Positions 14,103 through 46,016 are shown, counted from the first letter of the stretch. The stretch: 64,000 nucleotides of DNA from an uncultured Gemmatimonadales bacterium (GCA_963730185.1 CAVSQW010000012.1:288001-352000), one strand, 5' to 3'. The notes: generated by a model not told the origin, from the sequence alone. Translations and numbers: made by a program.

Positions 14103-14933
14103 TCAGAAGGTCGCGATCAGGGTGGCGGCGGTCTCGGGCCGTCGGGCCGGGTCGGCGTCCAGAGCCCGGGTTACGAAATCCTCCAACGCCCGGGAGCCGG
14201 TCCAACGACGGGCCGCGAGCGGCACGGCCGGCTCCCCGGCGACGATCCGGGCCCGGTAGGCCGCGTCGGACTCGCCGGGGCCGAGGTCGTGAGGCAGGTG
14301 CCCCGTAAGGAGCTCGTACAGCGTGGCGCCGAGACCGTACAGGTCCACCGCCGGGGAAGCATCGATCGGGGCCGCCAGCAGCTCCGGCGCGGCGTAGCCC
14401 AACGTTCCCACCGCTTCCTCGACCCAGCCCAACGGCAGGCCCCGCGGGGGGTGCCCGGTCGCGGCCACCCCCAGGTCCGCCAGCCGGACCGATCCGTCGT
14501 CCATCACCAGGACGTTACTCGGCTTGACGTCCCGGTGAAGCACGCCATGCTCGTGGAGCCAGGACAGAGCCTCACTCAGCTGTTTCGCGATGGCGGTCAC
14601 CGCGGGCTCGGGGAGCGGCACCGCCGCCGCGTCGCGCCCCCGGGGGTGGAGCCGATCGCGGAGACTGCCGCCGCCGGCCCATTCCAGGACCGTGAGCGGC
14701 GGTTCGTCGACGGCGTCGAAGCAGCGAATCAGGGAATGCGACCCGCCCAGCCGGGTCAGGAGCTCGCGCTCCAGCCTGAAGCGGAAGACGGCTTCGGGGG
14801 CGTCGTCGCGGGGGTGGAACCGCTTGAGCGCTACGCGCCCGCCGTTCGGCGCGAGGGCGTCCCAGACTTCGGTCGTGCCGCGTCCGGAATCGAGCCGGCG
14901 GCGGAGCGTGTAGCCGGCGGTCGAGCCGGACAC
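14103..14933 (-). CDS. Ser/Thr protein kinase (catalytic domain only), last gene of the T6SS operon
   Basis: VALKR, HRDVKPSN, DLG, GTLGYAAPE and DLYGLG motifs. Confidence 0.9.
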   Translation of the reverse strand: MSGSTAGYTLRRRLDSGRGTTEVWDALAPNGGRVALKRFHPRDDAPEAVFRFRLERELLTRLGGSHSLIRCFDAVDEPPLTVLEWAGGGSLRDRLHPRGRDAAAVPLPEPAVTAIAKQLSEALSWLHEHGVLHRDVKPSNVLVMDDGSVRLADLGVAATGHPPRGLPLGWVEEAVGTLGYAAPELLAAPIDASPAVDLYGLGATLYELLTGHLPHDLGPGESDAAYRARIVAGEPAVPLAARRWTGSRALEDFVTRALDADPARRPETAATLIATF

Positions 14934-14943
14934 CAGGATCCGT

Positions 14944-16098
14944 TCAGGTGTGGAGGAACTTGAGCCGGGACACCTCGGCGACGGTGATCTCGTCGCCGTC
15001 GTCGAGCCGGTAGTGCTCGCCCCGCTTGACCGGCTTGCCGTTCAGCGCGGTGCCGTTCATGCTTGCGTCGACCAGGTAGTAGTCCCCTTCCTTGCGGAGC
15101 AGGGTGCAGTGGAAGCGCGACACGAGCGCGCCCGAGTCGCTCACCACCAGGTCGTTCTTCTCGTCCTCACCCGGCCCCTGCGCCGCGCCGATCTTGAAGA
15201 CGCCCTTCTCGCGGTCGATCGTCACCAGCTTGCCCCGGCCGATGCCGTCGACGATCTGGAGCACGGCGGCCCGCTTGGCGGCCAGCTCGTCGGCCTTGCG
15301 CTGGCGCTCCTCGCGGTACTTGGCGCCCCAGCGCACCACGAGCACCAGCCCCGCCGCCAGGATGATCAGCACCGGCACGATGTAGAGCGCCTGGCGCTTG
15401 AGGTCGTCCATCCGCTTCGAGCGCTGGAGCTCGGACATGAGGCTCTTGGCCTCGGGATGGTTGGGATCCTGCTGAAGGACGGCGCCGAGGTGCTGCTCGG
15501 CGCTGGCCCAGTTCTTCGCGTTGATGTCGGCCCGGGCGGCACCGAGATGCGAGCGCACCACCTCGGTGGACTGCTGATCCGCCTTGCCGGCCTCGAGCGC
15601 CCTCGATCGGGCGGTCTGGAGGTCGTTCTGGGCCTGCTGGAGCCGCTGCTGGGCGACCTGGTTCTGGGGGTCGCGGAACACCACCTGGAGCCAGCGTTGG
15701 ATCCGCTCGTTGATGTGGGCGGTGGTGGTGTCGTCGGCGACGTCGGCGGCGATGGCCTGCTGGATGGCCTGGTCGAGCGCGGCTTTCTCCTCCGGCGAGA
15801 GCGTCCCGGCCGCGGCAGCGCTGGGCATAATCTGGGCCGGTGGCGCCTGCAGCTTGAGCGCCGGGGCGGCCGAGTCGGCCTGCTTGGCGCCCGAGTCGGC
15901 CTTGGGGCCGGCGGTCGGGGCCTGGACCGCGGGCGAGGCGCCGGGCGCCGGCGCCTCGGCCGGCGGCTTCTGAGCGGCCGCCGGCTCCTTCTTCTTCTTC
16001 TTGAAGAACGGCAGCGGGATCTGGGCGCTGGCCTCGGGGGCCAGGGCCAGCGCGAGCACCAGGCCCAGGAGCGTTGCCCGTTTGGTCGTGGTGGTCAT
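14944..16098 (-). CDS. signal peptide - helical/TPR - TM - FHA domain protein
   Basis: Signal peptide ending ASAQ, TPR-like LQQDPNHPEAKSLM, one TM, and C-terminal FHA (VSRFHC...DASMNGT..NG...LDDGDEI). Confidence 0.88.
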   Translation of the reverse strand: MTTTTKRATLLGLVLALALAPEASAQIPLPFFKKKKKEPAAAQKPPAEAPAPGASPAVQAPTAGPKADSGAKQADSAAPALKLQAPPAQIMPSAAAAGTLSPEEKAALDQAIQQAIAADVADDTTTAHINERIQRWLQVVFRDPQNQVAQQRLQQAQNDLQTARSRALEAGKADQQSTEVVRSHLGAARADINAKNWASAEQHLGAVLQQDPNHPEAKSLMSELQRSKRMDDLKRQALYIVPVLIILAAGLVLVVRWGAKYREERQRKADELAAKRAAVLQIVDGIGRGKLVTIDREKGVFKIGAAQGPGEDEKNDLVVSDSGALVSRFHCTLLRKEGDYYLVDASMNGTALNGKPVKRGEHYRLDDGDEITVAEVSRLKFLHT

Positions 16099-18848
16099 GA
16101 GACCCCCTCCGGCTGACCTCCCTCGGCGGCGCCGGCAGCCGCGCCGGTGGCGGCGTCGGCAGCCGCGCCGGTGGCGGCGTCGGCAGCCGCGCCGGTGGCA
16201 GCGTCGGCGGCTGCCGCCGCTTCCGCCGCCGCCGCTTCACGCTCGGCTTTGAGGCGCGCGGCCTCGTCCTCGACTTCCTTCGGCTCGCCGGCCAGGAGCG
16301 CGATCTCCTCGCCGTCCGGCACCACGCGGACCGCCATGCCGGGCCCCACGTCGCCCGCGATGATGAGTCGCGAGAGCGGGCTCAGGATGTGGCGATCGAT
16401 GGTCCGCTCCACCGGCCGGGCACCATAGACCGGATCGTAGGCCAGCCGGGCCAGGAGCGCCACGGCCTCGTCGTCGGCGTCGAGGGTCGCCTTGTGCTGA
16501 TCGAACAGCTGCCCGGCCAGGCTCTTGAGGTGCATCCGGACGATGACCTCCAGGGTGTCCTGCCCGAGCTCGTTGAACGGGATGACGCCGGACAGCCGGT
16601 TGAAGAGCTCGGGGCGGAGCGAGTCCTGCACCACCTTGAGGATGATCTCCTTCCGCTGCTCCGCGTCCTGGGCGACCGCGTTGGCTTCCTTCACGCCGAG
16701 GTTCGAGGTCAGCAGCACGATGGTGTTGGTGAAGTCGCAGAACCGGCCCTTGGCGTCGGTCAGTCGGCCTTCGTCCAGCACGCCGAGCAGGATGTCGATC
16801 ACCTCGGGATGGCCCTTTTCGATCTCGTCGAAGAGCACCACCGAGTAGGGCGAGCGGCGGACCTGTTCGGTCAGGAAACCGCCCTGCTCCGAGCCCACCA
16901 ACCCTGGCCGGGAGCCGATCAGGCCCGACACCGACCCGGAGTCCTTGTACTCCGCCATGTCGATCCGGATCAGGGCGCTCTCGTCGTCGAACAGCGCTTC
17001 GGCCAGGCCTTTGGCCAGCTCCGTCTTACCGACGCCGGTCGGGCCCACGAACAGAAACGAGGCGGGCTTCCGCTTCTTCCGGAGGTCGGTCCGCATCCGG
17101 CGGGCCGCTTCGGCCAGCGCGTCGACGGCGTCCTGCTGGCCGATCACCCGATCGGCGAGGCGTTCCTCGAGCTTGAGAAGCCGCTCGCGTTCGCTCTCCA
17201 TCATCCGCGAGATGGGGATCCCCGCCCGTCGCGCCACCACGTCGGCGATGTCGGTGGGACGCACCTCCTGGGGCACGAGGGGTCCGGCCTCGTTGACCTT
17301 GGCCTGGCGCTTCTCGAGGTCGGCCTCCTGCTCCTTGAGGAACTTGAGCGCGCCGTAGCGGATCTCGGCCGCGGCCGCCACGTCGCCGGAGGCCTCGGCC
17401 TGGGCCAGCTCGGCGTCTTTCTCCTGGATGGCTTTCCGGGTCTCCGCGAGGCCGGTGGTGACCGCCCGCTCTTCGTTCCACCGTTCCAGGATGCCGGCCA
17501 GCTCCGACTCGGCCGCCTTGACCTCTGTGGCCACGGCCTTGGGGTCGCCCTCGCCGCCGCCCTTGATCGCCTCGAGCCTGGCTTTGAGCCGGACCAGGGC
17601 CCGTTCCTTCTCGTCGATCAGGTTGGGCTTGGACTCGAGCTGCATCCGGAGCCGGGCGGCGGCCTCGTCGAGGATGTCGAACGCCTTGTCCGGGAAGAAG
17701 CGGTCGCGGAGGTGGCGGCGGGCCAACTTGACGGTGGCCTGGAGCGCGTCCTCGGTGATCCGAACCCCGTGGTGGGTCTCGTACTTGCTCTTGACGCCCC
17801 GGAGCATGGCCAGGGTCATCTCATCGTCGGGCTCCTCGACCACGATCCGCTCGAAGCGGCGGGCCAGGGCGCCGTCCTTCTCGATCGACTCGCGATACTC
17901 GTCGAAGGTCGAGGCCCCGACGCACTTGATCTCGCCCCGGGAGAGGGCCGGCTTGAGGATGTTGGCGGCGTCCATCCCGCCGGCGTTGCCGCCGGCGCCG
18001 ACCAGCGTGTGGATCTCGTCGAGGAAGAGGATCACGTCGGGCTGATCCTTCACCTCGTCGGCCACCGCCTTGATCCGCTCCTCGAATTCGCCCCGGTACT
18101 TGGCGCCGGCCACGAGGCCGGTCAGGTCCAGGGCGAGGAGGCGCGCGGCCCGGAGCGACTCCGGCACGTCGCCGGCCACGATCCGGAGCGCCAGGGCCTC
18201 GACCACCGCGGTCTTGCCGGTGCCGGGGTCGCCCACCAGCACCGGGTTACTCTTGGTCCGCCGAAGCAGGGTCTGTACGACTGAGCGGATCTCGATGTCA
18301 CGCCCGATCACCGGCATCAGCTTGCCGTCACGCGCCGCCTGGGTCAGGTCGCGGGTGAATCGCTCGAGGGTGCTGCCGCCTTCGCCGGGCTGCTCCTCGG
18401 TGGGCTGCATCACCTCGGGCGAGTCGAGCGCGGCGCCGAGGCGGTCGGCGGCCCAACCGCTGTCGCGGAGCGCGGGACCGAGGTCTCCCTGATCCGACCC
18501 GAGCGCGGCGAGGGCGACTTCGATGGGGCCGATGGTGTGGCCGCCGCGCTGGTCGGCCTGGGCGGTGGCCCGGTCGAGCAGGTCGCGGAGAGTCCGGCCG
18601 GCCACCGGCTGGCGGCCCGGCTCGAGCTTGACCGAGTCGGGCCCATCGGGCAGCGACTCGACCCGCCGAGCGGTGGCCGCCGCGTCGACCCCGAGCTTCC
18701 CGGCCAGCCGGCCGAGACCGCCCTTGGGATCGAGGAGGGCCAGCAGCAGGTGCTTGGCCTGGATGAAGGCGGCGCCCTGGCGGGCGGCGAGCCGCCGCGA
18801 TTCCTCCAGGGCCGCCGTCAGATCCATCGAAAGTCGGTTCAAATCCAT
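16095..18848 (-). CDS. tssH: ClpB-like AAA+ ATPase, putative sheath-recycling TssH
   Basis: Clp N-domain, GDPGTGKT, LFLDEIH, GAKYRGEFEER, coiled-coil middle domain, GPTGVGKT and LFDEIEK. Embedded in the operon. Confidence 0.85.
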   Translation of the reverse strand: MDLNRLSMDLTAALEESRRLAARQGAAFIQAKHLLLALLDPKGGLGRLAGKLGVDAAATARRVESLPDGPDSVKLEPGRQPVAGRTLRDLLDRATAQADQRGGHTIGPIEVALAALGSDQGDLGPALRDSGWAADRLGAALDSPEVMQPTEEQPGEGGSTLERFTRDLTQAARDGKLMPVIGRDIEIRSVVQTLLRRTKSNPVLVGDPGTGKTAVVEALALRIVAGDVPESLRAARLLALDLTGLVAGAKYRGEFEERIKAVADEVKDQPDVILFLDEIHTLVGAGGNAGGMDAANILKPALSRGEIKCVGASTFDEYRESIEKDGALARRFERIVVEEPDDEMTLAMLRGVKSKYETHHGVRITEDALQATVKLARRHLRDRFFPDKAFDILDEAAARLRMQLESKPNLIDEKERALVRLKARLEAIKGGGEGDPKAVATEVKAAESELAGILERWNEERAVTTGLAETRKAIQEKDAELAQAEASGDVAAAAEIRYGALKFLKEQEADLEKRQAKVNEAGPLVPQEVRPTDIADVVARRAGIPISRMMESERERLLKLEERLADRVIGQQDAVDALAEAARRMRTDLRKKRKPASFLFVGPTGVGKTELAKGLAEALFDDESALIRIDMAEYKDSGSVSGLIGSRPGLVGSEQGGFLTEQVRRSPYSVVLFDEIEKGHPEVIDILLGVLDEGRLTDAKGRFCDFTNTIVLLTSNLGVKEANAVAQDAEQRKEIILKVVQDSLRPELFNRLSGVIPFNELGQDTLEVIVRMHLKSLAGQLFDQHKATLDADDEAVALLARLAYDPVYGARPVERTIDRHILSPLSRLIIAGDVGPGMAVRVVPDGEEIALLAGEPKEVEDEAARLKAEREAAAAEAAAAADAATGAAADAATGAAADAATGAAAGAAEGGQPEGVS
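16134..16205. repeat. 3 x 24-nt tandem repeat encoding (AAADAATG)n tail of the ATPase
   Basis: GGCAGCCGCGCCGGTGGCRGCGTC at 16134, 16158 and 16182. Confidence 0.9.
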
Positions 18849-18862
18849 GGAGTGGTCCCTGC

Positions 18863-20497
18863 TCAGGGTTGCCCGCCGCGGCCGGGACGACGGAGCGTGA
18901 TCTTGGGCGTCGTGGGCTGCGGGGTCTGGGGCGGCGGTGGCGGCGGCGCGGGTGCGGGCCGAGGCGGGGCGGCACCGGCGGCCGACGGCGCCATGCCCGC
19001 CATGCCGAGCCGGCGGCGGAACAGCACCGCGCCGCGGAGGCTGTGGCCCGGCTGCACCGTCACCGTCAGTCCGTTGATCGTCGCGACGTCTTCGGGAGTA
19101 TCGAAGTTCATCGCGAAGTTCCGTTGACTCTCGAGCTCGCAGATGACGGTCCGGGTAATCGGCGAGCGGTGACCGCCGGCCGCGTTGACCCGGACGGTCA
19201 CGCTCAGCTCCTGCCCCGGCGCCCACTGGTAGCTCGACCGCGGGTCGCCGGTCAGCACGATCCGATACTCGTGCTTCCCGGCGAGGTCGAGCTGGCTGAA
19301 GACGAAGGTCAGGAGGTCGCCCTCGCGCTGCGGATGCGACGGCGAGGTGACCGCTTCGTAGAAGTGCTCGCCGTCGCGATCGAGCAGGAACTTGATCGAT
19401 TCGATGGCCCGGTTGATCCGGTAGTCGACGTACTTGCCGGCCAGCGCGTCGACCAGGTGGCGGAGCCGGGAGAGCGTCTCCGTCGCGCGGACCACCAGCG
19501 GGCGGAGCTCTTCCCGCCGATCGAGCTCCCGCTGGGTGGCCAGCACCCCGCGCTCGGCCTCGAGCAGCTCGGAATAGCTGGTGTCGACCTGGCTCAGGTC
19601 CTTGAAGAACTGGCGGCTCGACGACGAGAGCTCGAGGGCCAACGCCACCGTCCGCCCGGCCCGTTCGAGCTGTTGGAAGAACCGGTGCGGCGGCATCGCC
19701 AGGTCGGCCGTCTCGTAAGCGCACTGCTCGAGCGCCATGACCGCCCGCTCCACGAAGGCGCCGATGTCGACGTCGCTCCGAACGTCGACGCCCCGGGCCG
19801 CCACCTTCTCGGCGTAGCGGGCGGCGCTCCGGTGGATCTCCTGGTACTCGCCGACCAGGAGCCGGGCCTCCGATTGGAGCCGGGTGGCGGCGGTGTAGAG
19901 GGCGGTATGGGCCAGGAGCGAGGCGCAGGGCGGGATGTACTGCCCGTCGAGCTCGAAGCCGAGCGTCTCCGAGGCCCGGCGAAGCTTCCCCACCACCATC
20001 GACGACGACGCCAGCTCGGCCGGGAGGCCGAGGCGGACTTCGTACTTGGCCCGGCTGAGGGCGGCCTGGTTGGGATTCGAGGGATCGAGTCCCACCGAGG
20101 CCGGATCGTTCTCGCGCTCGCCGCTCCGGACCACGTACACCAGGGCATCGGTCACCCCGGCCAGGTCGCTCTTTCGCCAGTCGCCCTGCACCACCCGCGA
20201 CTCGTCGATCTCCACCAGCTCGCCGCCGGGGGTCACCCCGCGGGCCCGGAGGACCGAGACCCGGATCCGATCGGCCTCGTTCAGGACCTCGACCTTGGGG
20301 TCGTACTTGGCCAGGCCCTGCTCCACCGTCTCGAGCCGGACCCCACCGCCGACCAAGCCGGTGCCCGGGAGACAGTACTTGAGCAGCCAGGCAACCTGCT
20401 CTTCGACGTATCGGTCCTGACGCATGAAATGCTGCGGCGCGAGCAGCATTCCGGTGGTCCAGTTCACCGACTTGAAATAGTCGTCCCGTTGGGTCAC
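18863..20497 (-). CDS. tssK: T6SS baseplate protein TssK-like, C-terminally extended
   Basis: VNWTTGMLLAPQHFMRQDRY N-terminus and YIPPC motif typical of TssK. Confidence 0.8.
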   Translation of the reverse strand: MTQRDDYFKSVNWTTGMLLAPQHFMRQDRYVEEQVAWLLKYCLPGTGLVGGGVRLETVEQGLAKYDPKVEVLNEADRIRVSVLRARGVTPGGELVEIDESRVVQGDWRKSDLAGVTDALVYVVRSGERENDPASVGLDPSNPNQAALSRAKYEVRLGLPAELASSSMVVGKLRRASETLGFELDGQYIPPCASLLAHTALYTAATRLQSEARLLVGEYQEIHRSAARYAEKVAARGVDVRSDVDIGAFVERAVMALEQCAYETADLAMPPHRFFQQLERAGRTVALALELSSSSRQFFKDLSQVDTSYSELLEAERGVLATQRELDRREELRPLVVRATETLSRLRHLVDALAGKYVDYRINRAIESIKFLLDRDGEHFYEAVTSPSHPQREGDLLTFVFSQLDLAGKHEYRIVLTGDPRSSYQWAPGQELSVTVRVNAAGGHRSPITRTVICELESQRNFAMNFDTPEDVATINGLTVTVQPGHSLRGAVLFRRRLGMAGMAPSAAGAAPPRPAPAPPPPPPQTPQPTTPKITLRRPGRGGQP

Positions 20498-21402
20498 GCA
20501 GCACTCCTTGGCTCGGGACTGCCGAGATAGCTGTTCAGGCCCAGGGCGGCCTCATGCTCCGGATCGCCGAGCACGGCCGCCTCCGAGCGATTGCCGACGA
20601 TCCACCGCTCCGTCACGGTGGCGCGGAGATGCACCGGCAGCACCAGGCGGTAGATCGCGTCGCGCTGGCTCCGCTCGTCGGGCCGCTGCATCCGCCGGTA
20701 GGTCTCGAGGTCGACCGGGCCGATGTCGATCTCCACCGAGGTGCTGGCGGTGACGCCGTCGCCCACGATCGCGTCGATGCCCAGCCGGCCGTTCCGCCGG
20801 CCCAGCCGGGTCCGCCGCCCGGCCGAGACCGGGGCGATCCCGGAGACCAGCCGGACCGGGGATGCCGGCAGCCGGAATACCGAACGTAAGGCAATCGCCG
20901 GGCCGTCGGGACGGCCCGCGATCCGGGCCAGGGACGGCAGGAGCCGGGCCACGTCGTACCACCGCTCCCGGGGCCAGGGCGCGGCCGACAGTCGGAATAT
21001 CTCGGTGATCCAGCGGTTGGCGCCATCGGGGTCGTCGGGGTGGAGGTCGAGCAGCCCCCCCGCGGCCCGCAAATGGAGCTGGAGCTTGAGAAAATGGGTG
21101 TCGAAGAGGCCGAACAGCCGGTCGCTCCGGAATTCGCCCTCGGCGCTGTCGCGCATCGGGTAGGGCAGACTGTCGATCGCGCCCGAGCCGGCCACGGTCA
21201 GCACCACTCGGGTCTCCAGGGCGAGCTCGGTGCCGGCCGCCGGCGACTGCGACACCACCGTGCCCGGAGCCCAGCCCGGCCCCGCACTGTGCAAGGTGAT
21301 CCGATCGAGATCGACGCCCATCCGGAGCAGCGCCGGCACGGCGGAATCCACGGTGTGGCGGGCGCCGCGCCGGGGGGTGACCAGGTCGGGCATCGCGCTC
21401 AC
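20494..21402 (-). CDS. tssG: T6SS baseplate protein TssG-like with N-terminal PASTA-like segment
   Basis: DSLPYPM, RLFGLFD, TRLGRRNGRLG and IDIGPV motifs, LGLNSYLG end. Lies between tssF and tssK with 4-nt overlaps. Confidence 0.7.
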   Translation of the reverse strand: MSAMPDLVTPRRGARHTVDSAVPALLRMGVDLDRITLHSAGPGWAPGTVVSQSPAAGTELALETRVVLTVAGSGAIDSLPYPMRDSAEGEFRSDRLFGLFDTHFLKLQLHLRAAGGLLDLHPDDPDGANRWITEIFRLSAAPWPRERWYDVARLLPSLARIAGRPDGPAIALRSVFRLPASPVRLVSGIAPVSAGRRTRLGRRNGRLGIDAIVGDGVTASTSVEIDIGPVDLETYRRMQRPDERSQRDAIYRLVLPVHLRATVTERWIVGNRSEAAVLGDPEHEAALGLNSYLGSPEPRSAA

Positions 21403-23138
21403 CGGCCGTCGCCCTCCACCGGTACGATGGTGACCTCGATCCGATGCCCGATCATGGCTCGTTCGCTCAGGTACTGCTCCAGCTCGGTGCCCAGCCGCTC
21501 CAACTCGGCCTCGGGGTCGGCGAACTTGTCCCGGGGCGCGTGGGCGGTCACCCGGGTCACCAGCCCGAGGCCGGCGTCGGTAATCTCCGAGAGCGACTCC
21601 ACGTCGATCCGGGCCCGGTCGAGATTCGGCTCGAAGGCCCGGACCGCGATGTCGATGTCGGCCGCCGTGACCAGGCGGTCGCGGGTCCGGAGCATCTCGG
21701 CGAACCGGTCGCGGGCATCGGAGTAGCTGGGCGGCGCCGCGCCGCCCTTGGACGGCGTCAGGCTCGTGACCCGGGCGGTGGGATTGTTGGGCAGGTCGGT
21801 CCGGATCTGCTTCACCTCGCCGGGCGCGATCCCGTTGCCCTCGTCGCCGTCGCAGTAGAGCACCCGGAGCATGGCGTACGTCTCGAACCGCCCGCTCTCC
21901 TGCTTGGCCGGCGCGAATTCGAACTGGCCCCGGCCCCGGTAGCGATATCGTCCGGTGGCGGCCCGGGCCTCGAGGTCGCCGGTGGCGACGTAGGGATCGC
22001 CGTTCTCGCCCACCACCGAGAGCACCCCCATGACGTGGCGACGGTCCGAGCCCATCGGTCGGTGGGTTACCACCGATCCCATCCGATCGAAGTCGATCTG
22101 CTCGCTCCAGACCTCGATGTTGGAGACGGTGACGCAGTTGACCGCGATCCGGGTGACGGTATTGGCCACCCCGCGGAGTCCGGCCGGCAGGGGGATCTGC
22201 ACCCAGGCGAGCGGCCGATCCAGGGCCCGTTCCTGCCCCTGCGGGAGCAGCTTGGGCACCGCGCCGGCGACGGCCGGCGGGATCCGCGACCTGGTCCGTC
22301 GGTCACGGGGGATTTCAGGAAACACCCAGAGCCGCGAGCCGTAGACGCCGCCGACCAGCTGAATGGCCCGGGCCAGGGCGGACTCCGGCTCGGCGGCGCC
22401 GGGCGGCTCGCGGAAGAACTTGAGCCGCCACATGCCGCCCCGGGTCCGGGTGGAGCGGAGGATCCCGGGCTCGGTGACCACGCCGGCCTCGGAGAGGATT
22501 TGCCACGGGCTTCGCGCCAGGGCCGTCGCGACCTCGGCGCCGCGACCCGACACCTCGATGAAGACGCCGAGCCGGCTCAGGTGCGACTCGTCGGTCTCGA
22601 AGGCCAGGAGCAGCATCGGCGCCGGGTTGGTGAGATCCAGCGCCACGGAGTTGCCCGGGAGGACCGGCTGGTTGACCCACGGGAGGCGGGCGCCCGGGAT
22701 CGTCTGAAGCCGGCCACTCTCGTACACCCCCGCGAACACCAGCTCGGTGGGCGCAATCTCGATGGTTTCGTCGGGCGCGAAGACGATCTGCTCGCCGTTG
22801 GGCCGGTAGCCGATCAGCTCGATGTCGGGGGTGACCGGCTCGCGCTTCTGGACCTGGCTGAACTGGACCACCGCCTGCGCCGGACGGGCCAGCCGAGCCG
22901 GCAGACCCAGCCCGCGGATCAAGTCATCGAGCGCGGCGGCGAAGAAGACGTGGTCGGCCTCCCGGTAGATCGTGTCGATCTGATGAGCCAGGGCGTGGAA
23001 CACCGAGCCCAGGACCGGGTCGGGCAGGGTCTGCCCGCCGGTCTGCTGGTACATCTCCCGGGTAAACGCCTCGCGCAGCTGCCGCGCGATGTCGGCGGCG
23101 CTCCGTCCGGCGGGTCTCAGGCTCTGGCCCTGCTCCAC
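21399..23138 (-). CDS. tssF: T6SS baseplate protein TssF-like (gp6/baseplate J-like)
   Basis: DPVLGSVFHALA, ARPAQAVVQ, IAVNCVTVSN and LRTRDRLVTAADI motifs. 579 aa, after vgrG. Confidence 0.78.
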   Translation of the reverse strand: MEQGQSLRPAGRSAADIARQLREAFTREMYQQTGGQTLPDPVLGSVFHALAHQIDTIYREADHVFFAAALDDLIRGLGLPARLARPAQAVVQFSQVQKREPVTPDIELIGYRPNGEQIVFAPDETIEIAPTELVFAGVYESGRLQTIPGARLPWVNQPVLPGNSVALDLTNPAPMLLLAFETDESHLSRLGVFIEVSGRGAEVATALARSPWQILSEAGVVTEPGILRSTRTRGGMWRLKFFREPPGAAEPESALARAIQLVGGVYGSRLWVFPEIPRDRRTRSRIPPAVAGAVPKLLPQGQERALDRPLAWVQIPLPAGLRGVANTVTRIAVNCVTVSNIEVWSEQIDFDRMGSVVTHRPMGSDRRHVMGVLSVVGENGDPYVATGDLEARAATGRYRYRGRGQFEFAPAKQESGRFETYAMLRVLYCDGDEGNGIAPGEVKQIRTDLPNNPTARVTSLTPSKGGAAPPSYSDARDRFAEMLRTRDRLVTAADIDIAVRAFEPNLDRARIDVESLSEITDAGLGLVTRVTAHAPRDKFADPEAELERLGTELEQYLSERAMIGHRIEVTIVPVEGDGR

Positions 23139-23141
23139 GGA

Positions 23142-24992
23142 TCAGCCCTGCCTCGGGGTATCGGGATCCGCGGTTCGGGTGGCCACGGCGTCTTCCGGCG
23201 TCGTCCGCGTACCCAGGTCGGTCGAGTCGACCTTGACCTGATTGGTCGGCACCGGCTTGCCGGCGAACCCGGGCGGCTGCACGTGCACCATCCCGCCCAC
23301 GATCGCGTTCAGGGCGCCGGCCACCGACTCGACGTTCATGTTCCCCTTCAGCGCCACGTTCATGCCGTTGAGCGTCGCGTCGCGACCGGCCTTGAGGGTC
23401 AGGGCGCCGGTGACCTCGAGGTAGTCGTCGCCGCTCACCTTCTTGAGCGACGGGCCCGACACGACCTGGGTGAAGCTCTTCGACTTCATCCTGAGCTCGC
23501 CCTCGGCCTCGAGGGCGATGTCGCCCCCGGACTTGATCGTGATCACCGGGGTGTCGCCGTTGGTCAGCTGCACCATGCACTTGCCTTCGGGCGTGAAGAC
23601 CTCGATGGTCTCCGCCCCGTCGTCGTCGAGCAGCTGGATGGTGTTGCCGCTCCGGGTAATGATCCGCTTGGCGGTATTCCCCGAGGTCGGCTCCGGCGCC
23701 TGGTCGAGACCGTTCCAGAGCCCCCCCACCACCACCGGGAACTCGGGATCGCCGGCCAGGAAGACCACCAGCACCTCATCGCCGATTTCGGGGATGAACA
23801 TCATGCCCCGTCCGTTCCCGGTGTGCGGAGTGGCCAGCCGAGCCCAGTAGGACTGCTCGTCGCCGCCGCTCCACCGATACTGCACCCGGACCCGACCCAT
23901 CTTCGACGGGTCCTCGTTGTCGATCACCTCGGCCGCGATCGGCCCCGCGATGGCGACCCGGGCCGGGGCCTGATAGCTGGTGAACGTCTTCCAGGGCGTG
24001 GCCTCGAACCGGTTGAGGTACTGCTGGTCCTTGAAGGTGTTCGTGATCCGGGTGATCCCCAGCTTGCCGGTGGTGGCCAGCTGGAAGTCCTTCCCCTCGA
24101 TCAGGTTCACCAGATCGCCCGCCTGGAGGCCGGGCTTGCCGGACACGCACTCGACCCGGAGCGCTCCGCCCATCGCCCGCTCGCTCTCCTGTCGGAGCTT
24201 GGCCTTGAACTCAGCGTGGTCGGTGGACACCGCGAACGGCTCCGCCAGGATCGGGTCGCCGCCCCCGGCATACCCTCGGGCCAGGTCATTGACCGTGGCG
24301 ACCAGCTTGGCCGCCCCACCCAGGGTTGCCGGGTTGGACCGGATGCCGGCGTGGGCGTGGGTCGACTTCTCCTTCAGGTCGTAGCTCGCGCCCGTCACGC
24401 CGTTGTTCACGGGCCGGGCCCGGGCTGTGACCTCGATGAGCGACTCACCCCAGATCAGATCCCAGCCCTTGTCGACGAACTCGTTCCGGATCTCGACCTG
24501 GGGACCCGATGTCACCAGAAAGCAGCCGGCCTCGTCGGCCAGGCGCTTCAAGAACTCGAACTCGGTCTCGCCCCACTGGACGAAGTCGAAGGGATCGGCG
24601 GCCGGGAGTTTGGCCACGACCTTGACGCCCAGCTTGGTGGCGACGTCGCCCAGCTTGGCGCGGGGGAAATGCCGGGTGTCCCGGAACTCGTGCCGGATCG
24701 AGGGCGAGACGCAGTCGAGCACGAACCGGGCGCCGAAATGGAGCAAGTGGCTCTGGGCCCCGTCGGCGACGACGCCCTGAAAGATCTCGAGCGGATCGGC
24801 CTCGTCCTCCTGCACGGTCACGCTGACCGGGGCCCGGAGCAGGTCCTCGAGGGCCACGGTTTGGGCCCGGTCGCGGGTGAACTCGATGGCGCAGCGGGTG
24901 TGCTCTCCGAGCTCCTGCACCACCTCGAGCGATTCCACTTCGCTGTTTCTGAGCACCAGGTCGCCGATGCTGACCCGGATGATGACTTTCAT
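23142..24992 (-). CDS. vgrG: VgrG spike protein
   Basis: VQWGETEFEFLKRLA hub, gp5 OB-fold DNEDPSKMGRVRVQY..WARLA..FIPEIGDEVLVVF..GDPEFPVVVG, then a beta-helix region. Confidence 0.93.
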   Translation of the reverse strand: MKVIIRVSIGDLVLRNSEVESLEVVQELGEHTRCAIEFTRDRAQTVALEDLLRAPVSVTVQEDEADPLEIFQGVVADGAQSHLLHFGARFVLDCVSPSIRHEFRDTRHFPRAKLGDVATKLGVKVVAKLPAADPFDFVQWGETEFEFLKRLADEAGCFLVTSGPQVEIRNEFVDKGWDLIWGESLIEVTARARPVNNGVTGASYDLKEKSTHAHAGIRSNPATLGGAAKLVATVNDLARGYAGGGDPILAEPFAVSTDHAEFKAKLRQESERAMGGALRVECVSGKPGLQAGDLVNLIEGKDFQLATTGKLGITRITNTFKDQQYLNRFEATPWKTFTSYQAPARVAIAGPIAAEVIDNEDPSKMGRVRVQYRWSGGDEQSYWARLATPHTGNGRGMMFIPEIGDEVLVVFLAGDPEFPVVVGGLWNGLDQAPEPTSGNTAKRIITRSGNTIQLLDDDGAETIEVFTPEGKCMVQLTNGDTPVITIKSGGDIALEAEGELRMKSKSFTQVVSGPSLKKVSGDDYLEVTGALTLKAGRDATLNGMNVALKGNMNVESVAGALNAIVGGMVHVQPPGFAGKPVPTNQVKVDSTDLGTRTTPEDAVATRTADPDTPRQG

Positions 24993-25017
24993 TGCGGTCC
25001 TCCCTGGGGCCTGGGGC

Positions 25018-25377
25018 CTAGCCCGCGGCCATTTCCCCGAACAGGGCCTTGCCTTCGGGTGACTCTATCGTCAACCGGAAGGCGCGCCGGCCGTCGACGC
25101 CGAAGGTCCCGGTGGTGATCGACTGGACCCGATACCCTGCCACGCCCAGGTTGCCGAGGGCCGCGTTGATGGCGTCCTGCAACCCTTCGTGATCGGTCCG
25201 ATCGCGACGGGCCGCTTCGGTGAAGGCCTCGAGCAGCCCGAACCAGGGCGCGTGGGGCCAGGCCCGACTCGACGTGCCGGCCATCACCTGAACGAGACCC
25301 AGTATCGCGTCGAAGCCCTCCTGCTCGACGAAACGTCCCTGAGGGGTGATCCGGAGCGGAAGGGCTATCGATCGCAT
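25018..25377 (-). CDS. tssE: TssE/gp25-like baseplate protein
   Basis: 119 aa with IALPLRI start and PWFG motif, between tube and spike genes. Confidence 0.6.
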   Translation of the reverse strand: MRSIALPLRITPQGRFVEQEGFDAILGLVQVMAGTSSRAWPHAPWFGLLEAFTEAARRDRTDHEGLQDAINAALGNLGVAGYRVQSITTGTFGVDGRRAFRLTIESPEGKALFGEMAAG

Positions 25378-25395
25378 GATCGGGCCGGGTGGGGC

Positions 25396-25416
25396 GGTCG
25401 GTCCAGCGGACCGACC
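25396..25416. terminator. hairpin between tssD and tssE
   Basis: GGTCGGTCC-AGC-GGACCGACC, 9-bp stem. No U-tract. Confidence 0.5.
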
Positions 25417-25431
25417 ACCCGTCGACGGCGC

Positions 25432-25872
25432 TTACTTCGTGAACTTGTGCTTCGAGACGTTCGACTCGTCGACCGCCACCACCAGCTCGAGCTTGAGCAG
25501 GTTCTTGAAGCCGATCTGTGAGGTCGAAACGGTCTCGGTCGCGATCACCGGGTTCCCCACCTCGAAGTGGGAGATCCAGCCCATGAACTCGACCGCGTGC
25601 AGCACCTTGTCGGCTTCGTCCATATAGTAGGTGATCTCGCACTTGTGGAGCGGATCCTTGCTCTCGGTCGCGATCTTCCACAGCTCGATCTGCTGCGACG
25701 GCGAGAGGTTGTCGATCACGCTCGCGTCCATCCAGATGTCCACCCGACCGACCATCGAGTCGCCGATCCGGCGACCGACCTGGTTGGCGTTCCGGGCGAT
25801 CCGGTAGGTGGCCTGAACGGGTCGGAACTCGATGCTATCGATCTTGACCTTGACGCGGTTGTACGTGGCCAT
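25432..25872 (-). CDS. tssD: T6SS-iii-type tube protein TssD (Hcp)
   Basis: YRIARNANQVGRRIGDSMVGRVDI and CEITYY..EADKVLHAVEF.GWISHF resemble Bacteroidota TssD. Strong GGAGAG RBS. Confidence 0.75.
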   Translation of the reverse strand: MATYNRVKVKIDSIEFRPVQATYRIARNANQVGRRIGDSMVGRVDIWMDASVIDNLSPSQQIELWKIATESKDPLHKCEITYYMDEADKVLHAVEFMGWISHFEVGNPVIATETVSTSQIGFKNLLKLELVVAVDESNVSKHKFTK

Positions 25873-25912
25873 GGTTCTCTCCAGTAAGGGTTGCGGCTCA
25901 AGCGCCGGGGGT

Positions 25913-26299
25913 TCAGAGGCCGAACAACTTCTTCATCCTCCCTAAGAGCGACGCGGGGGCGTCACTTTCCCTCATGCCGGGGTCGGGGACGGATGGGGCG
26001 GCTGCCTCGGCCGCCGGCGAGGCCGGAGCCTCGACGGACGGACTCGCGGCCTCAGCCCTGGGCGCGGGCCGGAATTCGAATTCGGGATCGCGCTCGGTGC
26101 GCGCCTGGTGGCGCGACGAGAAGTTGAGCACCGACATCCGGGTCTTGTCGCCCCGGGCCAAGTGGCCCGAGCCGTCCATCCGACGCTCGACCCGGATGTT
26201 GCCGCGCTCTTGCTTGGTGTACCGGAGGTCGGGCTTCCGGGTTCCGTCGGGGTTCGCCAACGGGTCGGGCGCCTCGGCCTCCTGGTCGTCAGCCGACAT
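25913..26299 (-). CDS. hypothetical protein with C-terminal amphipathic helix
   Basis: 128 aa, GAGG RBS, ends SLLGRMKKLFGL. Lies between tssC and tssD. Confidence 0.7.
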   Translation of the reverse strand: MSADDQEAEAPDPLANPDGTRKPDLRYTKQERGNIRVERRMDGSGHLARGDKTRMSVLNFSSRHQARTERDPEFEFRPAPRAEAASPSVEAPASPAAEAAAPSVPDPGMRESDAPASLLGRMKKLFGL

Positions 26300-26317
26300 G
26301 GATTACCTCGCTTATCG

Positions 26318-27664
26318 TCAGCCTTCGGCGCCCTTCTTGAAGTCCGGGGTATCGATCTTGAGCTCGAAGGTTTCCGCCGGTCCGACGGGCAGCACCTCGA
26401 GATTGATGTCGAGTACCCCCTGGGCGAACTTGTCCTCGTCCATGTCGATGTCGAGCGAATACTTGTAGATCGTCCCGCCCTTGAGCTCGTCTTCCAGGAA
26501 CTCCTCGATCGGGTTCCGGACCTGCTCCTTCACCAGATCGCGGGTCAGCCGCTGCTCCGCCACCCGGCGGAGGTAGACGGAGATTCGCCGCTCCAGGTAG
26601 CGAAGGACCCGGTACGACGTAAAGAACTTGAGCACCCCCTTGGGGTCCTCGGCCTGGGTCCGGCTCCCGACGAAACAGAGCTGGTTCGAGTCGTCGCGGA
26701 TCATGCAGAGCACCTGCCGCTCCATGGTCAGGTGCTCCATCTGGGAGATCCGGGGCTCGATCCGGGACTTCTCCACCCCGCGGATCTGCCCGAAGATCAT
26801 CCCGACCGGGCCTTGAGCGATCCCGCCGCCGGTGGTCCGGTCGGTCCGGGCCAGACAGCCGGCGAAGAGCAGCGAGGCCGGCGAATAGAGATCGGGGTCG
26901 TCGACGTCGCCGTCGGCCTTCTCGAACCAGTGGCGGTCGCGGAGCTTCACGGTCCCGGCGATCACCACGTCGGCGGCCGCCTTGTCCTCGGGGCGCTTCA
27001 GGAACTCGTAGGCGCCGCCGTCGGTCCGGAACTGGTCGGAGAGCTGCTTGAAGTTCTTCTCGTCCTTGAGGTCGCCGATCAGCAGCATGCCCCACTGGCT
27101 GGCAATGTCCTCGAGCCGCTTCCGGACGTTGTCGGGTACATAACCCGGCAAAACCAGGTTGCAGATGAACTGCCGGAAGTTGAAGGTGTCGTTCCGGCTC
27201 TGAATGAACTCGTCCAGCGCCTCGATGGTGGAGCTGTTGACGTCGCTGGTGATGACCTTGGTATCGGCGTTGAAGATGTAGAACTCCACCGGCGGCCGTT
27301 GCTGCGAGTCGCGGACCTCGGCGTTCTCGAAGAAGAGCTGGAGCTGCCGGTAGCTCCGCTCGATCGGCCGGATCTTCTCGTAGATCTGGGCCAGCACGTC
27401 ATCGCGGAGCGCCTCCATCGAGGCGATCTGCTCGTCGAGCTTCTTCAAGGCCTGTTCGTAGCTGTCCTTGGTGGAGAGCAGGCTGGAGAAGTCGGCGACC
27501 CGCTTGAGGAACTGGCCGGCGCTCTCGGCGGTGAAGATGTCCTTGAGCGCGGTCTTGGCCGGCGCGGGGTGAATGACGTTGAAGATCTCCTCGATCGCCT
27601 TCCCGGCCGCGCGCTTGCCGATGATGTCCTGCGCGCTCTTGACCATCACTTTCTCGTCGCTCAC
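26318..27664 (-). CDS. tssC: T6SS-iii-type large sheath protein TssC (DUF5458-like)
   Basis: IERSYRQLQLFFENAE, LVLPGYV, LYSPASLLFAG and SYRVLRYL motifs, with a sheath-type C-terminus. Confidence 0.85.
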   Translation of the reverse strand: MSDEKVMVKSAQDIIGKRAAGKAIEEIFNVIHPAPAKTALKDIFTAESAGQFLKRVADFSSLLSTKDSYEQALKKLDEQIASMEALRDDVLAQIYEKIRPIERSYRQLQLFFENAEVRDSQQRPPVEFYIFNADTKVITSDVNSSTIEALDEFIQSRNDTFNFRQFICNLVLPGYVPDNVRKRLEDIASQWGMLLIGDLKDEKNFKQLSDQFRTDGGAYEFLKRPEDKAAADVVIAGTVKLRDRHWFEKADGDVDDPDLYSPASLLFAGCLARTDRTTGGGIAQGPVGMIFGQIRGVEKSRIEPRISQMEHLTMERQVLCMIRDDSNQLCFVGSRTQAEDPKGVLKFFTSYRVLRYLERRISVYLRRVAEQRLTRDLVKEQVRNPIEEFLEDELKGGTIYKYSLDIDMDEDKFAQGVLDINLEVLPVGPAETFELKIDTPDFKKGAEG

Positions 27665-28131
27665 GCCTCACCTCCCGACAGCCGCTTGAGCGCGTCCTGG
27701 AACTCGCCCAGAGCCTCGATGATCTCTTTCCGCTGATCGTCGTTCTCCCAAGCCCGCCGCACCGCGAGCACCGAGAACCGCTCCCGCATCCGGTGCAGGA
27801 GATCGATCTGGCTCTGGAGATCGGCCAGGTCGTTCCGCTTGCCCGGGGTCCGGGAGCCGATCTTCTTGGGATCGAAGTCCTTGAGGCTGTTGAACTCGAG
27901 ATCGGCGACGAACTCGGTGCCCTCTTCCCCGACGGTCGTCTTGAAGTCGAGGGCGGGCTTGAACTTGTCGAAGGCCTCCTGGAGGTCGGAGACCTTGGTC
28001 GGGCCCTCATCCTCGGGGCATTCCTCTCCCACCCGCTCGACGGTCATCGGCATGACGGTCGCCGTGGTTTCGGTGGGAACCTGACGGGGCGCCTGTTTGA
28101 CGCCGGCACGGGTGACTTTGACGACTGGCAT
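27661..28131 (-). CDS. tssB: T6SS-iii-type small sheath protein TssB
   Basis: LQEAFDKFKP, LEFNSLKDFDPKKI and a C-terminal helical hairpin. 4-nt overlap with tssC. Confidence 0.82.
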   Translation of the reverse strand: MPVVKVTRAGVKQAPRQVPTETTATVMPMTVERVGEECPEDEGPTKVSDLQEAFDKFKPALDFKTTVGEEGTEFVADLEFNSLKDFDPKKIGSRTPGKRNDLADLQSQIDLLHRMRERFSVLAVRRAWENDDQRKEIIEALGEFQDALKRLSGGEA

Positions 28132-28377
28132 GGGATTCCGGTCTCCGGGAGCGAGCGACGACGGTTCGGGATGCCGACCGCGAAAATATCAGCGACAGGG
28201 GGTCGCTCGAACGGCGGCATCGAGTCTGACAACGGTGAGCGGGACCTGCCAGTTAGATACCTTCGATCTGCCTGTCCCGCAAGGCGTTGGAGGGTCGGGA
28301 GGGCCCCGCCGCCCACCCGTTCGACCCCAACGCCAATCTCCAATCCCTAGGGAAGCGACGATGCCGCCGCGGGTCCC

Positions 28378-29694
28378 TCACCCCGCCCGCGCCTTGGCCG
28401 CCGTCACGTCCGCCGGCTTCCTGGGCGCCGCCTCCTTGAGGTCGGTCCGGAGCCCGCCGGCCAGCTTGGCCTTCTTCTTGGGCGCCGCGGCCGTCGCCGC
28501 GCCGGCCGGCAGGATCCGGGGCCAGAGCAGCCGGGGCAGCACCAGCCAGAGCAGGGCCAGCAGGATCAGCACGAATAGCGCCAACGGAATCCGGCGGTCG
28601 ATCACCTCCGACCCACCGAGCTGATTGGAAATCCCCGCCGGGATGACCCCCGGCGACACCACCCCCGAGAAAGCCGGCAACGCCATCACCGGTGGCCGCC
28701 AGACGGCCACCCCAGTGGCGGCTGCCGCGCCCCCGCCCAAGGCAAGGCTGGTCCCGATCGCCGTCCACCCTCGCCCAAGCTCCTCCCGCCCCCCGCTCGG
28801 CACGGGGAACGCCAGCTCCCAGGTCGACGAAAGCAGGTTCCGGATGTCGTCCAGCGGCCGGGCCAGCTCGAAGGCGTCGATCGGGACCACGTAGCTCCGA
28901 CCGCGGGGGCCCGCAAGCGCCTGGAGCGCTCGCGGGTCGACCCCACCGCCCAGCCCGATCACCGCCGTCACCAGACCCGAGTTGGCCACGGCCCGGGCCG
29001 CCGTCTGGAGCCCGGCCGCGCCGGTCAGGAGCCCGGAGTCGTCGCCCGGATGGTCCACATCGTTGTTGCCGTCGGTCAGCACCACCAGGACACCCAGGGC
29101 GTCCGCCCCGGCCTGCGCCAGCTCGGTCTTGAGCCGCTCGGTCCCCAGGTCGATCGCGCTGTAGAGGCCGGTGTTCTCCCGGTCGGGCGTGGGAAGGGCC
29201 TCCACCTGATCGATCGCCTGCGCCGGCGGGACGAACCGGGCGCTCCGGATCCGGCCGGCCACGTCCACGCTCCCGAACGGGGCGACCGCCACCTGGATGG
29301 CGCCGTCGGCCATCGATTCCAGGGAGCGAAGGAGGTTGTCCTTGAGGACGATCTTGGCGGTCCCGATCCCCAGGTTCCGCATGCTGCCGCTCACGTCCAC
29401 CAGCATCAGGATCCGCGCCGGCCGGCTCCGGACTCCCGGAAGCCGCCGGGCGAAGGCGACGATCCCGTCGTCACCCCGGAACCGGATCCGCCAGGCCGAG
29501 TCGACCGCGGCCGCTGGCGCGGTGGCAATCCGCCGGGCGGCGTCGACGGTGACGTCGATGGTGGTGGTGAGACAGGCCTGGTTGGTGTTGTCGGCACAGC
29601 GCACCAGCAGCGCGTCGGGCAGCTGAGCCTGGCCCGGCGCCGCCATCCCCGCCAGCAGGGCAACGAGCCCGAAGGCACTCCGGCGCTCGCTCAC
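28378..29694 (-). CDS. exported vWA domain protein with C-terminal TM anchor
   Basis: Signal peptide, MIDAS DVSGS, VLTDG, C-terminal TM and a basic tail. Confidence 0.88.
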   Translation of the reverse strand: MSERRSAFGLVALLAGMAAPGQAQLPDALLVRCADNTNQACLTTTIDVTVDAARRIATAPAAAVDSAWRIRFRGDDGIVAFARRLPGVRSRPARILMLVDVSGSMRNLGIGTAKIVLKDNLLRSLESMADGAIQVAVAPFGSVDVAGRIRSARFVPPAQAIDQVEALPTPDRENTGLYSAIDLGTERLKTELAQAGADALGVLVVLTDGNNDVDHPGDDSGLLTGAAGLQTAARAVANSGLVTAVIGLGGGVDPRALQALAGPRGRSYVVPIDAFELARPLDDIRNLLSSTWELAFPVPSGGREELGRGWTAIGTSLALGGGAAAATGVAVWRPPVMALPAFSGVVSPGVIPAGISNQLGGSEVIDRRIPLALFVLILLALLWLVLPRLLWPRILPAGAATAAAPKKKAKLAGGLRTDLKEAAPRKPADVTAAKARAG

Positions 29695-30830
29695 AGGGAC
29701 GCCTCCGGGAACCGGCGGAACCGGAACTGGTGCTCGCCCAGGACCACCACGTCATCGTTCAGGAGATCGGTCGGTCCGGTGATCGGCTGGGCGGCGAGCA
29801 CGGCGCGCTCTCCCCCCTGACCCGTCGGAGCGATGGCCAGCCGGCCCCGCTGCGCTCGCACCTGGAACCGCCGTCCGAAGGCGTTGGCCACGTCGTCGAG
29901 CACCTCCCACTCCCGGTGGCGGATGAGCCCGACCGAGCCGCCGCTCACGGTCTCGAGCTCGACCACCCCCAACGCCCGGGCCGGCCGGCTCAGCCCGTAG
30001 CCCAACCCCGAGCCCACCAGCACGAAGGCGATCAGTTGCCAGAGGTCGGTCGGGCCCGGGAGCGACATGATCAGGCCGCCGAGCGCCCCGGCGCCCAGGC
30101 CGAACAGGAGCCCGTCGAGCAGCCGGCCTCGGTCACGACCGAACCAACGGGCCCCCAACACGAGGCCGCCCAGACCGCCCGACAGGCCCCACACCAGCAG
30201 CCGGGCCACGATGAACCCTTGACGGGAGCTGCCGAGACCCCCCAACCCGGCGACCAGCAGCCCGAGCAGGGCGCCCACCGTGGTCCCGACCACCCCGAGC
30301 ACCAGCCCGATCGCCACCGCCGCCACCGCCGCTTCGTTCCGCCGGAGCGCCGCGAAGCCGAGGATCGCCGCTCCAACGAAGGCGCCGAGAATCGCGGCCA
30401 CCGTCAGGTCGAGGGTGCCGTAGCTCACCAGCACGGTCCCCAAATCGGTGAAGAGCGACCCGACCAGCCAGGCGACGGCGCCGCCCGACAGCCCGGCCAC
30501 CAGACCGATGTACGCCCCCTTGGGTAGGAACGGTTTGGCCGGCGGCTCCGGCCGGGCCGTCTTCGGACCGGTCCGCCGCTGCATCCGGAGCTCGATCGAG
30601 TAGAGCGGGGCGATCCGGAGGGTCTCGGGCGGCTGCTGGAGATCGAGGGAGCGGCCGTTCCAGGCCACGAACAGCTCGTCCTCGGGCCCTCCCTTGAGCA
30701 TGATCCCCCGCTGGCGGAGCTCTTCCAGGACGTGGCGGAGCTGGGGGCCGAGCGGCCGGTCGTCGTCCAGCGTGAAGGGCACCCGCTCCAACCCGCGCTC
30801 GGTGACGAGATCGATGTTGTAGGTCGGCAT
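29691..30830 (-). CDS. ubiquitin-like N-domain - ~6 Gly-rich TM - degenerate FHA-like protein
   Basis: N-terminal beta-grasp-like region (WNGRSLD...ETLRI....SIEL), Gly-rich hydrophobic helices and C-terminal LLNDDVVVLGEHQFRF. Confidence 0.65.
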   Translation of the reverse strand: MPTYNIDLVTERGLERVPFTLDDDRPLGPQLRHVLEELRQRGIMLKGGPEDELFVAWNGRSLDLQQPPETLRIAPLYSIELRMQRRTGPKTARPEPPAKPFLPKGAYIGLVAGLSGGAVAWLVGSLFTDLGTVLVSYGTLDLTVAAILGAFVGAAILGFAALRRNEAAVAAVAIGLVLGVVGTTVGALLGLLVAGLGGLGSSRQGFIVARLLVWGLSGGLGGLVLGARWFGRDRGRLLDGLLFGLGAGALGGLIMSLPGPTDLWQLIAFVLVGSGLGYGLSRPARALGVVELETVSGGSVGLIRHREWEVLDDVANAFGRRFQVRAQRGRLAIAPTGQGGERAVLAAQPITGPTDLLNDDVVVLGEHQFRFRRFPEASL

Positions 30831-40320: not shown

Positions 40321-40336
40321 CCTGAAGAGGCTCTCG

Positions 40337-42622: not shown

Positions 42623-42766
42623 GGCTGGAGAATAAGGGCCGGAAACGGGTTCGGCCAGGCGACCAGGAACGGTCCCGGGCGCCCTGGACAGCCCGCCGCG
42701 TCGCATGGAGATTGGAGGCGGAAGTGCGACTCCGCACCGCCCCTCGAGGAACCGAGCCCGAACCTC

Positions 42767-43687: not shown

Positions 43688-43705
43688 TCAGCCGGGAGCG
43701 AACAC

Positions 43706-44134: not shown

Positions 44135-44137
44135 CCC

Positions 44138-46012: not shown

Positions 46013-46016
46013 CGCC

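Follow-up and report, generated by a model that had tools for sequence, protein, structure and literature searches.

Type VI secretion systems (T6SSs) have been described with two non-homologous membrane complexes, TssJLM and TssNQOPR, for whose origin PMC10781749 lists replacement and independent capture as scenarios. Across >20,000 complete genomes, the same paper found T6SSs of subtype iii (T6SSiii) in Bacteroidota only, a restriction also given in PMC13584744, and the Gemmatimonadetes T6SS covered in PMC9113992 is of subtype i4b. Here, we analyzed a 64,000-nucleotide stretch (the window) from an uncultured Gemmatimonadales bacterium of the phylum Gemmatimonadota (GCA_963730185.1 CAVSQW010000012.1:288001-352000), in which a T6SS tail operon lies among genes for membrane proteins with FHA, vWA and ubiquitin-like (Ubl) domains. 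A minority of Gemmatimonadota carry such a T6SS without a detected known anchor, and the accompanying inner-membrane proteins are a candidate third way of anchoring. The reading that we favor, and place slightly on the probable side, is that of a divergent cell-anchored T6SS with its baseplate docked on an inner-membrane platform; this platform would contain its own phospho-switch and be neither related to TssJLM nor orthologous to TssNQOPR. This docking reading is supported by the tail genes, the failure to find the tested anchors, the co-occurrence of tail and membrane genes, the domain folds, a gene fusion, and the derived state of the tail-less copies, each presented below.

The genome containing the window is 82% complete and has a single copy of each tail gene. 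The minus-strand operon runs from 28131 to 16095 in the order tssB-tssC-orf128-hcp-tssE-vgrG-tssF-tssG-tssK-clpB, as assigned by Pfam and NCBIfam matches and synteny. The T6SS hallmarks are thus present in one locus, namely, a sheath composed of TssB (27661..28131; Pfam T6SS_VipA, E = 2e-5; Bacteroidota TssB, 4e-6) and TssC (26318..27664; PF17541, E = 1e-21, above the cut-off), a VgrG spike (23142..24992; family matches), the baseplate proteins TssF (21399..23138; TIGR02243, 9e-11, and synteny), TssG (20494..21402; Pfam T6SS_TssG and PASTA) and TssK (18863..20497; family matches and profile comparison), and a ClpB-like AAA+ ATPase (TssH; 16095..18848) matching NCBIfam ClpB (915 bits) and ClpV1 (696 bits), both below the cut-off. 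The putative Hcp/TssD-like tube protein (25432..25872) and the TssE/gp25-like protein (24989..25377) have no Pfam or NCBIfam match and were named from position, size, conservation in related loci and synteny, the latter gene lying between hcp and vgrG across the loci. The PASTA-like domain at the N-terminus of TssG is unusual for a cytoplasmic baseplate subunit. The conserved 128-residue product of orf128 (25913..26299) shows, in an alignment of 15 sequences, a short conserved core, a Pro/Ala linker and a basic-hydrophobic C-terminal peptide, which we take to resemble MinD-type membrane anchors. This peptide is a candidate membrane-targeting helix that an amphipathicity test did not confirm: the window's own sequence was no better than shuffles (406 of 1,000), and one of the 15 members fell under 5%. 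A promoter scan found none, and terminator-like sites were at chance level.

At the sequence level, the locus is a divergent T6SS whose nearest described relative is the T6SSiii of Bacteroidota. The likeness to T6SSiii, as presented in PMC10781749, extends to a PF17541-type TssC, a related TssB and the N-terminal two thirds of TssK, and further to the failure to find TssA or TssJLM. Both also have an EccD-like Ubl domain on the cytoplasmic side of a polytopic protein, and a vWA domain in the periplasm. The only TssC matches among plasmids were six Bacteroidota proteins of the DUF5458 type, just 20-24% identical, and PF05943, the VipB sheath family of subtype i (T6SSi), was found neither in the window's genome nor elsewhere among G000, G038 and G357. 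In profile comparisons, residues 10-289 of TssK align with two Bacteroidota TssK (probability 94.6), and TssK also aligns with a T6SSi TssK (probability 85.2). Residues 290-500 and 350-500 match neither T6SSiii nor T6SSi TssK, and a search of PDB sequences with the C-terminal region returned only TssK, at E = 0.18. This clade-specific region (about residues 350-500) is followed by a Pro-rich linker and a terminal basic, beta-strand-like motif, [KRV]-I-x-[LIVF]-[KR]-[KR] (18863-18900), which is present in 24 of 26 sequences and is a candidate ligand of the Ubl domain. Besides this extra region of TssK, the locus differs from T6SSiii in its kinases and FHA proteins and in having no lipoprotein and no match to the TssN or TssO profiles.

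Neither TssM (PF14331) nor TssL (PF09850) was detected in the window's genome or in any of nine tail-bearing relatives (91-100% complete), the E. coli control being positive. TssN (PF17555) was missing from the same ten genomes, the profile being positive in two Bacteroidota plasmids. TssJ was found in none of five genomes and TssO (PF17561) in none of four, with positive controls in both cases, and TssA (ImpA_N) in none of four tail-bearing genomes, its profile being positive in genome G225. TssR (PF17643) had no match in the window's genome or in 13 genomes, but no control matched it either, and for TssP a single PKD-protein query against the genome's own open reading frames (ORFs) gave no match at 1e-3. 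The original prediction, which had seen nothing like TssJ, TssL or TssM and no clear TssN, TssO or TssR in 64 kb and had asked whether such genes exist elsewhere, therefore held for the TssJ/L/M/N/O components tested genome-wide and for all six families among the 30 window proteins scanned. No gene lies between tssG and tssK, the usual position of tssN; the two genes directly overlap. Short divergent TssO, and also divergent TssQ and TssR, are known to escape profiles (PMC10781749), and the absence is accordingly firm only for TssL, TssM and TssN. For the components tested, the locus belongs to neither T6SSi nor T6SSiii by its membrane complex.

The three envelope ORFs on which the prediction had centered flank the tail operon on both sides, as it had stated, and are all on the minus strand, with a GC content at third codon positions of 0.92-0.95; their proposed architectures were recovered with Pfam and, for the polytopic protein, with AlphaFold2. 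The candidate hub, Ubl-6TM-FHA (29691..30830), has no Pfam match. Its model (10 sequences; predicted local distance difference test [pLDDT] 84.9) comprises a beta-grasp domain (residues 1-87), six transmembrane (TM) helices (104-281) and, at residues 286-375, an FHA fold. As the protein lacks a signal peptide, its N- and C-terminal domains are both predicted to face the cytoplasm. The top Foldseek match was EccD of ESX-5 (EccD5; E = 5e-4) and the top VIA match was the Ubl domain of EccD5 (7b9f_X; Z 10.7, root-mean-square deviation 1.9 over 83 residues), the comparison giving the Ubl domain of the model a beta-grasp fold. According to PMC10781749, EccD5 (7B9F) is also the structural match of TssN, the cytoplasmic EccD-like domain of which recruits or co-purifies TssK. 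An ESM Atlas search returned only the protein's own cluster and, at values under 0.9, leads to Planctomycetota and Bacteroidota families of the TM-FHA type. In one genome (G106) and four metagenome loci, Ubl-6TM is fused with the vWA protein into a single ORF.

The vWA protein (28378..29694; 438 residues) has a signal-peptide-like start, a periplasmic vWA domain (residues 95-273) with a DxSxS metal-binding (MIDAS) motif set within a split domain, a single TM segment (363-395) and a cytoplasmic tail in which Thr431 is invariant in the alignment; among 65 homologues, the MIDAS motif DxSGS is found in 62 and the Thr motif of the tail in 53. Its stop codon lies 246 bp from tssB, and it is immediately upstream of tssB in 14 of 19 informative loci, the other five having inserted genes; three genomes carrying insertions of this kind have both vWA and Ubl-6TM at a greater distance upstream. 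The third protein, TPR-TM-FHA (14944..16098; Pfam and alignment), has a start that looks by eye like a signal peptide, a periplasmic helical/TPR region (TPR_19, residues 149-224), one TM segment (235-261) and a cytoplasmic FHA domain (310-373). The usual FHA consensus includes the arginine of a G-R pair; here, G304-A305 stands in its place in 20 of 20 sequences, with S-R-x-H and N-G retained.

Co-occurrence of these genes with the tail, another expectation of the prediction, was confirmed in a sample of 401 Gemmatimonadota genomes. TssC is found in 10 of them and the vWA protein in exactly those 10 (E up to 1e-10). With a threshold of E = 1e-3, Ubl-6TM has matches in 14 genomes; the 12 strong ones are the ten TssC genomes plus G225 and G301, a count that excludes the marginal G395 and G135 (E about 6e-4 over 57-70 residues). 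The tail is patchy inside genera, being present in three of the six other genomes of the window's own genus (g1) and in one of 15 in g11. A TssK-profile scan of species genomes yielded 40 loci, which overlap the 401-genome set, the two counts not being additive: 38 are from Gemmatimonadota records, one from Acidimicrobiales and one from Bacillota. TPR-TM-FHA is encoded in 28 of the 40; 11 of the 12 others end before reaching the gene, and one carries an Rhs insertion. A query with the TPR-TM segment, an insensitive test that missed two known copies, matched six of nine tail-bearing genomes and, marginally, three of 51 others. Two loci (L065 and L066) have a rearranged tail gene order and retain the module, and the 26 metagenome loci with Ubl-6TM have tail genes downstream in nine cases and PAAR-type genes in two, the remaining 15 ending too early. 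When ORFs from 44 locus groups were clustered, the recurring envelope families within the fetched flanks were limited to the module proteins, the kinases and a PEGA protein, and the module proteins were the only membrane proteins recurring in most groups. The Acidimicrobiales (L060, many frameshifts) and Bacillota (L069) records may reflect mis-binning or transfer of the same locus, and the L069 copy nests among Gemmatimonadota copies in a gene tree.

The set of three proteins is thus real and at the same time incomplete, the conserved module also including an FHA-TM protein, kinases and the PEGA protein. FHA-TM (9854..11029, plus strand) consists of an FHA domain (Pfam), a TM segment and a periplasmic helical plus alpha/beta region (model pLDDT 78.3), and its C-terminal domain is found in 12 of the 401 genomes, the same 12 as the strong Ubl-6TM set. 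The invariant His and Asp residues of the periplasmic domain presumably recall M15 peptidoglycan peptidases such as TagX. An M15 identity was not confirmed, there being no Pfam, PDB or PHROG match and hhalign scores staying at shuffle level; TagX itself is described as a cell-wall peptidase in PMC13584744. The structure-search lists for the FHA-TM model were filled by its FHA domain, and a YscD BON-like Pfam match in six of 14 members was below the cut-off. Remote relatives of the C-terminal domain (10637-11029) form the N-terminal part of giant proteins (P0117-P0146; 1,200-6,100 residues), those scanned having no family annotation. A cytoplasmic Ser/Thr kinase (14103..14933, minus strand; Pfam Pkinase, 6e-37) has VALK, HRD and DLG motifs and is common in the loci, if not universal. 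A second kinase of PpkA-like topology (32402..34519, minus strand; Pfam and motifs), with a Zn ribbon, a Ser/Thr kinase domain, a TM segment and a periplasmic domain, lies near the locus in several relatives. The PEGA protein (35415..36731, minus strand; Pfam) has two repeats resembling by eye a kinase N-lobe around a Zn ribbon, followed by a TM segment and a periplasmic PEGA domain; with strong matches in all nine tail-bearing genomes and only weak ones in six of 51 others, it is a probable module member. In one locus (L073, 15483-16262), a lytic-transglycosylase-like ORF was seen by eye within the module.

Several lines of evidence, considered in this and the following three paragraphs, weigh against the docking reading. 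With respect to structure, the whole-chain Foldseek TM-score of the hub model to EccD5 is just 0.18, and the VIA match lies no more than 1 Z unit above generic Ubl folds (9.7) and the FHA domains that match the C-terminus (10.6). Profiles built from only two TssN sequences gave a probability of 0.1, with scores at shuffle level, against the whole Ubl-6TM protein, its Ubl domain or its TM region. With respect to sampling, all genomes are drafts, and related genomes are not independent samples. The original prediction had regarded the polytopic protein as a possible counterpart of TssN, which stands as an analogy of fold only, no likeness of sequence having been detected; its suggestion that the vWA protein may be a counterpart of TssR appears weak, TssR being a lipoprotein of ~790 residues (PMC10781749) and the vWA protein having 438 residues, one TM segment and a tail in the cytoplasm. 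That the envelope proteins are nonetheless very diverged, permuted TssN/TssR orthologues, and the system a non-Bacteroidota T6SSiii in which TssNQOPR has eroded, would agree with a tail nearest to T6SSiii and with the shared EccD-like Ubl domain, TM bundle and vWA domain. We regard this as quite improbable, given that the domain order is reversed (Ubl at the N-terminus here, at the C-terminus in TssN), that there are six helices rather than five and an additional FHA fold, that the profile scores are those of shuffles, that the Ubl-6TM gene lies outside the tssG-tssK interval, and that the vWA protein is not a lipoprotein.

With respect to the envelope, none of the module proteins has a lipobox and the module includes no beta-barrel, and thus an inner-membrane platform is supported and a trans-envelope channel is not. 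A beta-barrel protein encoded nearby (40250-41629) was considered as an outer-membrane partner and rejected, being present in four of nine tail-bearing genomes and 16 of 51 others. The proposal of an alternative trans-envelope complex was therefore not borne out, no outer-membrane component having been found, and the earlier interpretation as a whole is partly supported. The predicted inner-membrane location of all module proteins would also suit a contractile system that is tethered to the inner membrane without spanning the envelope, is triggered by stress and acts on the producer or its periplasm. A precedent is the Streptomyces contractile injection system with CisA (PMC12237407), in which, as here, a contractile system is tied to dedicated inner-membrane protein(s) and no outer-membrane part is seen. 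We give this explanation little credence: the split TssB/TssC sheath, TssK, TssG and the Clp recycler are T6SS features, and, in contrast to Streptomyces, the host is diderm and several membrane proteins are involved. In Longimicrobiaceae-type loci, moreover, PAAR-Rhs and immunity-like genes, identified by eye, are inserted, which suggests delivery to other cells.

With respect to function, five tail-free paralogous modules were found (in G301, G225, G357 and G038, and at locus L064), comprising 6TM-FHA without Ubl, TPR-TM-FHA and FHA-TM, the last not within the fetched DNA of L064. The Ubl domain is missing in all five, and three of them (L027 in G301, L028 in G225 and L030 in G357) show an in-frame loss of the vWA domain, with signal, TM segment and tail retained. 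The parts lost are those that the anchor model assigns to the tail. In two midpoint-rooted gene trees (22 and 23 rows), the tail-free copies form one clade nested in the tail-linked copies (support 100/99 and 100/100), which makes them derived and the disappearance of Ubl a single event rather than five. Three tail-free copies that were compared are 51-68% identical, differ at 0.54-0.64 of third and 0.17-0.27 of second codon positions, and have intact frames, apparently under purifying selection. G301 has no detectable T6SS (no TssC, TssK or VipB found), and the only T6SS of G225 is a canonical T6SSi on a contig other than that of the stripped module. Because the stripped copies persist in these two genomes, the module can work without this tail, which would fit signaling. 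The T6SSi contig of G225 (C20; L082 and L083) carries genes for VipB and TssA, a pair of TssK-like genes and a large ORF resembling TssM.

The survival of the module without a tail bears directly on the explanation in which the envelope proteins act as a sensor and switch based on threonine phosphorylation, similar to PpkA/Fha/TagR and with the vWA domain split from the kinase, the true anchor being encoded elsewhere and unrecognized. The combination of FHA, kinase and periplasmic vWA domains corresponds to the parts list of the T6SSi pathway TagQRST-PpkA-Fha1-PppA; according to PMC3224232 and PMC13584744, the vWA domain of Pseudomonas aeruginosa PpkA is extracellular, and this kinase recruits T6SS parts by way of Fha1. 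The locus accordingly has two kinases with intact catalytic motifs, one of them in the membrane, three FHA folds and an invariant Thr in the vWA tail. It departs from that pathway in that the FHA domains are membrane-anchored and degenerate, lacking the G-R arginine, and the vWA domain is on a separate single-pass protein. No PppA-type phosphatase was found among the 30 window proteins scanned or the recurring locus families, the rest of the genome being outside this search, and several loci that retain the membrane genes have no copy of the small kinase. Further, T6SSi retains TssJLM beside its switch, whereas here no TssJLM was found and no other membrane gene recurs within the fetched flanks, and the available portion of PMC13584744 does not name a six-TM Ubl protein as a pathway member. 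On balance, we consider a pure switch unlikely, though clearly less so than the two preceding alternatives.

Under the docking reading, Ubl-6TM-FHA would oligomerize as a hub, by analogy with TssN and EccD, and its cytoplasmic Ubl domain may bind the clade-specific C-terminal region of TssK or the terminal beta-strand motif. The vWA protein, its fusion partner, would be its direct partner, and the vWA, TPR-TM-FHA, FHA-TM and PEGA proteins together could supply a periplasmic cage. The kinases would phosphorylate cytoplasmic tails, with Thr431 of the vWA protein as a candidate site, and FHA domains could cross-link the subunits, so that the same proteins might serve as scaffold and switch. For passage of the tube through the peptidoglycan and outer membrane, either an unlinked gene may serve or the spike may punch through.

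Among the closest parallels to such a platform are membrane parts of type VII secretion systems (T7SSs), namely EccD and YukD-YukB-YukC (PMC12637312), in which Ubl, FHA and kinase-like domains are assembly parts and the Ubl protein YukD organizes T7SSb assembly. The Ubl domain precedes the TM bundle, as in EccD. The differences are the six helices rather than ten and the contractile tail, and no FtsK-type ATPase or WXG100 gene was found among the 30 window proteins scanned. A more specific proposal, to which we assign a somewhat less than even chance, is that the system forms its own T6SS subtype, for which a third membrane complex was recruited independently from a T7SS-like kit (an EccD-order Ubl-TM hub with FHA, kinase-like and vWA subunits). 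Phosphorylation would trigger the assembly of this complex on demand, it would have no outer-membrane lipoprotein, and it would later have yielded a tail-free complex with its own function. The T6SS lineage is real and undescribed, and its docking most likely works like that of T6SSiii; our literature searches, which left supplements and most subscription papers outside, found no description of this system. If the docking reading is correct, a sister lineage of T6SSiii would have a third anchor, again with a Ubl domain on a helix bundle, which would demonstrate domestication of phage tails by repeated anchor swapping and expose a minimal docking rule, for which the tail-less, Ubl-less natural copy is a ready control. 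It would also bring to light, in an abundant phylum, an antagonism system that escapes the standard profiles for T6SS membrane complexes.

The region at 41738..53485 encodes a PAAR protein, peptidoglycan-binding and OmpA-like proteins (Pfam) and unidentified ORFs. Such ORFs, which lack signal peptides, are found again next to the tail in 6-10 of the 44 locus groups and are likely cargo. In other loci, PAAR-Rhs, TPR-like and immunity-like genes were seen by eye inserted between tssK and clpB (L062, 10665-15316, and L024-L026). An Ig-like lipoprotein gene lies near the locus at 37657-40320. Finally, a gene for a pyridoxal phosphate-dependent decarboxylase (30906-32405) is located between Ubl-6TM and the membrane kinase and is found near the locus only in three genomes of the window's own genus.

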